Shown here piece by piece: positions 11 through 1,372 of a stretch of DNA of 1,372 nt. Below the pieces are notes generated by a model. It was given only the letters and a program-made list of their open reading frames with translations, was not told where the DNA came from and did not search any database. The stretch's first letter is position 1. Each line of letters opens with the position of its first letter. This stretch comes from Naegleria gruberi. Taxonomy: Eukaryota. Where the stretch lies: the NCBI GenBank assembly GCA_000004985.1, contig GG739438.1, one strand, 5' to 3'. Both the position numbers and the translations under genes were made by a program.

Positions 11-318
11 CATATTGTAATAAATATAGTATGATATCATACCATATAGCCCGTAAATTCATAAGTTGCGTTCCCATCAATCACAATTAAACTGTGTTAA
101 ATTGAATATCAGTTCCTTCTAATTCGCAAAGATTGAAAAATTGAATTTTTGTTTTTATTTCAAATCTGGAAATATATACATATTATACTAATATATAGAC
201 CATTGATCAATATTAATAAAATTATTATCTAATTAACGCAAAGTAAAAAATCAAATCGAAATTTTTTTTTTCACTTTTGTCGTCTTTCGCGCAAAACAAG
301 GGTAACTTAAAGTCACGA

Positions 319-325
319 GGGGGGG
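319..325. repeat. G7 homopolymer tract inside a short GC-richer island (about 276-330)
   Basis: The sequence reads cacgag-ggggggg-tgttgtg. Seven consecutive G in an AT-rich background is unusual, and an A7 run with a TATA-like string (336-345) follows. Confidence 0.8.
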
Positions 326-553
326 TGTTGTGTCATATAAAAAAATCATTATTTAAATAACTCGAAGGTGCACTGCAAATTGTCGGACAAAATAATCCAC
401 TATAATAAACATTGTTTGATGCCAAACGTTCGGGAGGTAGTCCAAACGGAGCAAGTAGGAAGTAAATGCATTTTTGGGAAATACGGGGTTTCGGAGTAAT
501 TTAAAATACTGTTTACAGACCGATTATTTCATCCGACATTATTTGTGGGCTTT

Positions 554-703: not shown

Positions 704-738
704 CCCTACCACTTGTCAATTAAGACGAGTTGATAGGG
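704..738. repeat. 35-bp imperfect palindrome centred on AATTAA (copy 2); hairpin-forming on either strand
   Basis: Left arm ccctaccacttgtc (704-717), loop aattaa (718-723), right arm gacgagttgataggg (724-738). Folded: 13 pairs (one G-T wobble), one C/A mismatch, one bulged T730. An A-run lies 5' and TTTTATT 3'. Confidence 0.65.
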
Positions 739-857: not shown

Positions 858-942
858 TTTTATTATATTAAAAAAAAGAAAATACTTTCCCGAACTTGAA
901 AAAATATCCAAGTCAGGATTGAAAAATTTTCGAAAAAAAAAA
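823..942. repeat. Array copy 3 (120 bp)
   Basis: It matches copies 2 and 4 except that the leading CC is AA (823-824), which lengthens the junction A-run to 11 (814-824). Confidence 0.9.
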
Positions 943-1144: not shown

Positions 1145-1372
1145 CTATTGAATGTTTTTATTTACAGTATTTACAGACATCTTATTACGGTACCAAGATA
1201 ATGCCACTAATGGTCCTCCAGGGGATCGACGAGTAGGAGGTCTTTCACGTTGATTATTTACAGGTTCTTCCTCGGGTTCTTCGTAAGGTACTTCCTCTTG
1301 CTTCCTCTTCCGTTTCAATTCCTTCTCTCTTTGTTCATAAATTCCTTGTTCATGGTTAATTTCTACAGTATT
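1145..1372 (-). CDS. 3' end of a protein-coding gene (5' part lies beyond the window end). Charged low-complexity C-terminal tail, product unknown
   Basis: Minus-strand frame is open for 75 codons from the window edge to TAG (complement of 1145-1147), and the other five frames over the same span contain stops. Translation: ...NTVEINHEQGIYEQREKELKRKRKQEEVPYEEPEEEPVNNQRERPPTRRSPGGPLVALSWYRNKMSVNTVNKNIQ*. No in-frame start lies inside the window other than a Met 11 codons from the end. Confidence 0.65.
   Translation of the reverse strand, partial: NTVEINHEQGIYEQREKELKRKRKQEEVPYEEPEEEPVNNQRERPPTRRSPGGPLVALSWYRNKMSVNTVNKNIQ

Follow-up and report, generated by a model that had tools for sequence, protein, structure and literature searches.

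We analysed a 1,372-nucleotide stretch of Naegleria gruberi DNA (the window) in which a 35-bp imperfect palindrome recurs in tandem 120-bp units. With moderate confidence, we interpret each unit as a termination module of the rRNA transcription unit, which RNA polymerase I (Pol I) transcribes with the minus strand of the window as the sense strand. The array lies past the 28S rRNA gene, its long T-runs are on the rRNA-sense strand and the palindrome gives a stable RNA hairpin. The stem carries compensatory changes, the adjoining T-run and box are conserved and modules of this kind recur across the genus. We infer from these observations that the polymerase is Pol I, that transcripts end at the modules and that a protein binds the box.

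Because it matches rRNA-bearing contigs and encodes part of an N. gruberi protein, the window comes, as judged from sequence, from the non-ribosomal spacer of the rDNA circle (CERE) of N. gruberi. This circle is a nucleolar plasmid of 14 kb and roughly 4000 copies, and its spacer has been described only as 'repeat-laden' (PMC5805870; PMC13398248). When metagenomes were scanned with a 20-mer that all five repeat copies share, a single contig matched, L001 (14,434 bp), which is 89–91% identical to the window over its entire length. On its minus strand L001 carries a GIR1 ribozyme along with the genes for 28S, 5.8S and 18S rRNA. It is collinear with the window, so that the rRNA-sense strand is the window's minus strand. 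Contigs L004 and L005 are 99–100% identical to the window and their ORF is a GenBank N. gruberi protein; window identity is 99% for the contig encoding AUH25140.1 (N. gruberi; P0002) and 100% for a second contig. BLAST searches of the window against phage and plasmid collections, two scans of viral contigs and a search of prokaryote genomes gave no match, and a viral or bacterial source was dropped on these grounds. A search for tRNAs found none.

In the rRNA-sense direction, the 28S end is followed by about 600 nt, an ORF, about 45–47 nt and then the 120-bp array. In N. gruberi the interval between 28S and array holds a 1-kb ORF and also an earlier hairpin followed by T8, about 190 nt past the 28S. 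On contig L002, the 28S ends at 7263 and array hairpins with T10 lie at 8999 and 9118 on the same strand. The window contains the C-terminal 75 codons of the ORF (1145–1372, minus strand, frame open to the window edge), which is homing-endonuclease-like (zf-His_Me_endon). Its full-length orthologue on L001 (6341–7408, minus strand) is a protein of 355 aa that is 81% identical to AUH25140.1 and matches PF05551, the zinc domain of His-Cys-box homing endonucleases, at 94 bits. The ORF is also found on L004 (361–1395) and L006 (986–2029), and L010 has an inverted homologue with 28% identity and PF05551 (13419–13985, minus strand). The ORF downstream of the 28S has been called a likely pseudogene (PMC5805870); it is intact in three lineages, with dN/dS of 0.46–0.56 at dS up to 0.65. 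The idea that the adjacent His-Cys-box-like protein binds the palindrome as a dimer was set aside, given that the arms change between lineages, that L007 has no such ORF and that the centre of the palindrome is asymmetric.

Other features of the spacer were recorded alongside the array. A dispersed direct repeat of 270 bp has one copy adjoining the array (window 293–538), and its copies in L001 (3426–3697 and 5345–5617) are 98% identical and about 1.9 kb apart. The sequence GATTGAAAAATT, which belongs to the box region, recurs in antisense orientation at window 131–142, 550 bp beyond the array. This fifth exact copy is kept in L001 and may have been left by an old unit. The distal array edge (553–574) has a 10-bp tandem repeat, TCCCTTCGAA, of 2.2 copies that is single-copy in L001. 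The near-perfect 24-bp palindrome ATATAGTATGATATCATACCATAT at 24–47 is conserved in L001, and the left part of the window around it is very AT-rich (17–26% GC). The circles L001 and L002, with spacer ORFs that are 99% identical, are unlike in the twin-ribozyme intron of the 18S: GIR1 and an endonuclease gene are found in L001 at 13315–14242, and the 18S of L002 (1463–3482) is intron-less.

The array occupies 580–1105 and consists of 4.4 copies (TRF: period 120, 94% matches), which bears out the 120-bp spacing given in a sequence-only reading of the same DNA. On the sense strand each unit runs AAAA, the 35-nt hairpin, T9–T11, CGAAAATTTTT, the box CAATCCTGACTTGG, ATA-T6 and the remainder. The reference palindrome, CCCTACCACTTGTCAATTAAGACGAGTTGATAGGG, is at 704–738 on the minus strand; it is abutted by T9 at 695–703, and the box, which begins 11 nt after the T-run and is directly followed by ATA-T6, is at 670–683. 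Sister T-runs are at 814–824 (T11), 933–942 (T10) and 1053–1062 (T10), and sister boxes at 789–802, 908–921 and 1028–1041. The first hairpin met on the sense strand (1063–1097) starts 47 nt past the ORF stop codon (1145–1147). This copy and the one at 943–977 are exact copies of the 35-mer, as the earlier reading had stated for all copies but that at the edge. The copy at 823–857 departs from it, with AA for CC at 823–824. This substitution removes two outer C-G pairs, thereby lengthening the T-run to 11, and leaves a weaker hairpin (ΔG –9.9 kcal/mol, z –2.9). The edge copy at 585–620 had been singled out as mutated in one arm only, and it is indeed degenerate: it folds no better than chance (–4.7, z –0.3), and has T5 only and no downstream box. 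An equivalent decayed edge copy is present in the sister lineage (alignment A1). The palindrome occurs in this one cluster and nowhere else on the 14-kb circle. Each N. gruberi unit also has a second sense-strand hairpin, CCUGACUUGG...CAAGUUCGGG, followed by UAUUUUCU8 (window 862–940 and sister units), which is weaker in L002 and absent from L010.

The imperfect palindrome at 704–738 is real, and its folding largely agrees with the sequence-only reading. The plus-strand RNA fold has the 13 pairs, one mismatch and one bulge that had been described, namely 12 Watson-Crick pairs and one G-U pair, a C/U mismatch, a bulged A and a 6-nt loop. Its stability is –14.9 kcal/mol (z –5.2; none of 200 shuffles was as stable), and that of the minus-strand fold is –15.6 kcal/mol (z –4.8), both far better than shuffled sequence. 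The AATTAA loop had been called palindromic, but its reverse complement is TTAATT and it is merely an unpaired centre. Wobble-pair asymmetry was considered as an indicator of the strand and was uninformative, with one G-U pair per strand, each the mismatch of the opposite strand. Because both strands fold equally well, the choice of strand rests on the T-run and on comparative polarity alone. As had been noted, the plus strand continues with TTTTATT and the minus strand with T9, T11, T10 and T10. The hairpin is thus flanked by T residues on both strands, but the symmetry was overstated: a long T-run (9–11) is found on the minus strand only. With DNA parameters the palindrome folds weakly (–5.0 and –3.9 kcal/mol, z –2.7 and –1.7). 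The arms have changed in sequence between lineages, which is hard to reconcile with binding of a sequence-specific dimer. This and the weak DNA fold favour an RNA rather than a DNA hairpin.

To compare lineages, we searched with the endonuclease of the 18S intron and obtained three near-complete Naegleria circles, L007, L010 and L011, and a partial one, L016. The contig of an intermediate lineage, L006, ends in a repeat unit just before the palindrome. L014, L015 and L018 were rejected as Naegleria spacers after they were found not to be such. L010 has one homologous unit, AAAACCCGAGTAGTTTGTCTTGAGTGACACTACTCGGG followed by T10 and CAAAAATTTTTCAATCTCGACTTGGAAATTTTT. It keeps the flanks, the outer CCC/GGG and inner GTC/GAC of the stem, the T-run and the box, and differs in mid-stem on both arms with pairing retained; its hairpin is predicted at –24.3 kcal/mol (z –5.8). 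In alignment A1, 92% of cells pair, compared with 26–48% in slid controls, and three pairs are changed on both sides, a number reached in 4 of 500 shuffles; this covariation is drawn from a single independent comparison of lineages, that with L010. Both L010 and L002 retain T10 at the equivalent position, and the box there is nearly identical while the stem diverges. Between the two N. gruberi-type lineages (ORF dS 0.23) the 35-mer has zero changes and the rest of the unit differs by about 12%, a value read by eye from A1 rather than computed. Compensatory change in the stem next to nearly invariant flanks, T-run and box suggests that pairing is under selection; repair within the palindrome could mimic such compensation.

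The comparison with L010 also bears on polarity. Its unit has T10 on the sense strand vs TTTTG on the other strand. Despite the inversion of the ORF homologue in L010, hairpin and T-run are still oriented with the rRNA genes. The sequence-only reading had proposed a bidirectional, intrinsic-terminator-like architecture. The terminator-like part of that proposal is supported by our data. The bidirectional, bacterial or viral part is not, with the long T-run in rRNA sense only. Because of this T-run, and because orientation is kept beside an inverted ORF, the terminator looks unidirectional and tied to Pol I.

Modules with unrelated hairpins are found at the equivalent place in other lineages. 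In L007, which has no spacer ORF, the first 1.1 kb past the 28S end holds several unrelated sense-strand hairpins followed by T7–T9; one of them is TGGCAAAGTCGAGGAATTTTTCGACTTTGCCA with T8 (–27.2 kcal/mol including flanking A and U runs). L011 has a hairpin of –31.8 kcal/mol with T5 before its ORF, and after the ORF a hairpin of –18.3 kcal/mol with T9, about 95 nt past the stop, and then AT-rich palindromes with T8 in tandem repeats. The ORF that these repeats follow in L011 is HNH-like (CGDNSCTNPRH motif), without a Pfam match; the palindromes, TAATTAAAATTAGTTT..AAACTAAYTTTAATTA, are AT-rich and 37–41 bp long (13270–13586 and 1–260), and half of them are followed by T8. In N. fowleri TY, whose sequence was taken from a printed supplement, a 168-bp tandem unit beside the 28S contains a sense-strand hairpin with T10 (–16.7 kcal/mol, z –5.4) and also CGACTTGTAA with T9. 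The strongest module comes right after a sense-oriented ORF in L002 (+1735) and L011 (+1204), and lies within 500 nt of the 28S where there is no such ORF (L010 +489, L007 +363).

We also surveyed T-runs in the pooled spacers of four lineages, counting identical repeats once, which gave 110 distinct runs of T7 or longer. A hairpin of –12 kcal/mol or lower abuts 7 of the 29 sense-strand runs within 2.2 kb of the 28S end and none of the 81 runs elsewhere in the four spacers (Fisher 5e-5, indicative only because the thresholds were chosen post hoc). Closer to the 28S, a small palindrome, CCAAGYTGATCARCTTGG, followed by T7–T9, is conserved across lineages about 190 nt past the 3' end (L002 7437–7462, plus strand; L006 541–570; L010 12985–13012), and this may be a primary terminator or a processing site.

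The box CAATCCTGACTTGG is a candidate site for a roadblock protein. Its consensus is CAATC(CT/TC)GACTTGG, a post hoc motif that begins 11 bp past the T-run. Scanning for GACTT[GT]-N0-6-T5+, with motif and thresholds set after seeing the data, gave 2 to 8 sense-strand copies in the first 2 kb past the 28S of each complete circle and 0.1–0.2 per strand in dinucleotide shuffles. The supplement of PMC12366685 prints the Xenopus T2 Rib2 site with the same core, GACTTG, as the box; we take this match as a lead and not as a test. The wider pattern, (C/T)GACTT(G/T) with a few bases and a T-run, is seen genus-wide on the rRNA-sense strand past the 28S, including L007 790–1500, L010 13080–13345 and N. 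fowleri TY. In L007 and L011 this motif is the 3' arm of hairpins.

For decades the mechanism of Pol I termination has been in dispute. According to Nielsen and Zenkin (Sci Adv 2025) it is a conserved one, in which a roadblock protein acts together with an RNA hairpin and a T-rich tract (PMC12366685). In their account, Pol I halts about 15 bp upstream of the roadblock site, Pol I stopped near a hairpin terminates without backtracking, the sequence of the hairpin is irrelevant and downstream fail-safe terminators also have hairpins; the layout was surveyed in yeast, Xenopus and mammals, so that it covers fungi and vertebrates only (PMC12366685). The features of such a terminator that are present in the Naegleria array are its position downstream of the 28S in sense orientation, a stable hairpin and a T tract in the non-template strand. 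Counting 15 bp upstream from the Naegleria box leads into the T-run, adjacent to the hairpin.

By analogy, the nascent RNA would fold into the 35-nt hairpin while the polymerase rests on a weak rU-dA hybrid (U9–U11), probably stalled there by a protein on the CAATCCTGACTTGG box that starts 11 bp onward, and the hairpin would then free the transcript. The four intact tandem modules, which are accompanied by the decayed fifth, could serve as fail-safe terminators behind the weaker proximal hairpin-T8. Such an array would keep polymerase from circling the 14-kb plasmid and running through the remaining spacer, the origin and promoter. Because the ORF and the earlier hairpin-T8 intervene after the 28S, Pol I may never reach the array in N. 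gruberi, and the array could serve the ORF instead. We know of no roadblock protein in Naegleria. The Naegleria CERE literature that we examined describes no mapped transcript 3' ends, and the Naegleria literature that we found assigns no function to the spacer repeat or its palindrome. The repeat has been in GenBank since the first CERE sequence. The CERE announcements that we examined, PMC5805870 among them, describe spacer repeats only as repeats.

In an alternative that we regard as unlikely, the array would work as a polar replication fork barrier, or as some other DNA element at the rDNA 3' end to which protein binds, with termination secondary or absent. The fork that moves against rRNA transcription would be halted by a protein on the box and perhaps on the palindrome. 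In its 3'-end position, tandem repetition and conserved box the array is like rDNA fork barriers; those of mouse and S. pombe share sites with terminators (TTF-I, Reb1), a use of terminator sites that is also described in PMC11358750. The CERE of N. gruberi replicates by the theta mode from a single origin in a 2.1-kb spacer fragment (PMC13315211), so one fork must run head-on into the rDNA. A barrier, however, needs a sequence-specific site, whereas the palindrome arms have changed and kept their complementarity, and a barrier alone would leave the abutting T-run and the stability at the RNA level unexplained. This alternative and termination by Pol I are compatible rather than exclusive, and the box-protein complexes of a terminator could double as a polar fork barrier.

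It is distinctly unlikely, in our judgement, that the modules instead signal the 3' end or the termination of transcripts of the homing-endonuclease-like gene next to them, for any polymerase, or form a bidirectional terminator between gene and spacer. The close spacing of hairpin and ORF does fit such a role: the first N. gruberi hairpin is 47 nt past the stop, the strong hairpin-T9 of L011 is about 95 nt past the stop of the HNH-like ORF and, in L010, the inverted ORF has its 3' end about 110 nt short of the hairpin. So does the maintenance of the ORF in three lineages (dN/dS about 0.5). What speaks against it is that the long T-run in L010 faces the rRNA direction and not the ORF, that L007 has modules without an ORF and that the N. 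fowleri array precedes the ORF.

Very unlikely, too, is a role of the array as the CERE replication origin or part of it, as a structure-prone array of palindromes flanked by A/T tracts. The single origin does lie inside the non-ribosomal spacer, within the 2.1-kb fragment (PMC13315211), a 636-bp fragment used in vectors is said to contain it and the array is AT-rich (about 27% GC). Against this, neither the window nor L001 has the yeast ARS consensus, the hairpin is weak as DNA (–5.0 and –3.9 kcal/mol), and for an origin one would expect neither strict rRNA-sense polarity nor a single copy in L010. In other rDNAs the origin is upstream of the promoter, not at the 3' end, and the position of the array is unlike theirs.

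The repeat could also be a neutral minisatellite, functionless, with its palindrome carried along by unequal crossing-over and concerted evolution. Copy number does vary among assemblies, with 4.4 in the window, 5.4 in L001 and 2.4 each in L002, L003 and L004; these differences may be real length variation or assembly collapse, and the published lengths of two N. gruberi CEREs are about one unit apart. The copies are also near-identical, one has uncompensated changes and the edge copy is decayed. We nonetheless judge this highly improbable in view of the single-copy L010 homologue with its conserved flanks and compensated stem, and of the unrelated hairpin-T-run modules at the equivalent place in other lineages. 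Least probable of all is that every unit is a gene for a small hairpin RNA, pol III-type or miRNA-like, ending at the T-run: a stable hairpin precedes a T-run and Rfam gave weak matches to SpF36 (32.5 bits, gathering 48) and mir-454 (24.8 bits, gathering 60), but zero families reached the gathering score, the matches are of a generic hairpin-plus-U kind and no promoter element is evident.

If the Pol I terminator reading is correct, a compensated hairpin-T-run-box module in Discoba would extend the hairpin, T-tract and roadblock model across eukaryotes. It would also be the first functional assignment for the 'repeat-laden' spacer of Naegleria, the pathogen N. fowleri included. The CERE, as a 14-kb circle of 4000 copies with a single rDNA unit, would be an unusually clean natural test system, and setting a candidate terminator or fork-barrier sequence apart from the origin matters for CERE-based vectors. 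A bolder proposal is that near-bacterial intrinsic rRNA terminators (a hairpin abutting U10), a Rib2-like box and a Pol I-transcribed ORF all hold jointly; this is possible but, taken as a whole, doubtful. Under this joint proposal, the deep-branching eukaryote Naegleria would end transcription of its rRNA near-intrinsically, the shared GACTTG core would suggest that a hairpin, T-tract and box terminator is ancestral to eukaryotes, and the endonuclease-like ORF between the 28S and the array would lie inside the Pol I transcription unit.

Several known systems resemble the array in part. Baculovirus hr elements likewise contain imperfect palindromes of about 30 bp inside direct repeats, and the sequence-only reading had offered them, together with origin and partition-protein sites, as an alternative. 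We found no support for this: hr clusters are dispersed, whereas the array is a single non-viral cluster on the circle, without a restriction-site core and with arms that are not conserved, and the searches gave no viral or phage match. Bacterial intrinsic terminators share with the array a stable RNA hairpin with a U-run immediately after it, and the upstream A4 of the array can pair with the first U residues as it can in bacteria. Unlike them, the array has a moderately GC-rich stem with a mismatch and a bulge, and is found in a eukaryote, where it is presumably transcribed by Pol I. On a eukaryotic rDNA plasmid, it is not a bacterial intrinsic terminator. A bacterial promoter and terminator scan of the orthologous region of L001 did not report the palindrome, a result that is uninformative because the palindrome has a bulge.

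Fork barriers of rDNA (the yeast Fob1 RFB, S. pombe Reb1-Ter and mouse TTF-I Sal boxes) are, like the array, repeated at the rDNA 3' end with fixed polarity relative to transcription. They are protein-DNA complexes that need no hairpin or T-run, whereas the array has both. The 168-bp repeat of the N. fowleri CERE (MT741533; TY), described in the literature only as a repeat, is in the same genus, on the same side of the rDNA and in tandem; it differs in unit length and hairpin sequence and precedes the spacer ORF, whereas the N. gruberi array follows it.

The closest resemblance is to the Pol I terminators of yeast, Xenopus and mammals. The array differs from them in that the hairpin abuts an uninterrupted T9–T11, as in bacterial terminators, that its modules repeat in tandem every 120 bp on a single-gene plasmid that is circular and that N. 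gruberi has a protein-coding ORF between the 28S and the array. The known roadblock sites bind Reb1/Nsi1, Rib2 or TTF-I, and the Naegleria box is a candidate only. In both cases, however, the elements lie past the large-subunit rRNA gene in sense orientation and follow the same order of hairpin, T-rich tract and conserved box about 11–18 bp onward. In both, the sequence of the hairpin is free while its pairing is kept, and the copies are repeated, as in the Sal-box series of mouse.
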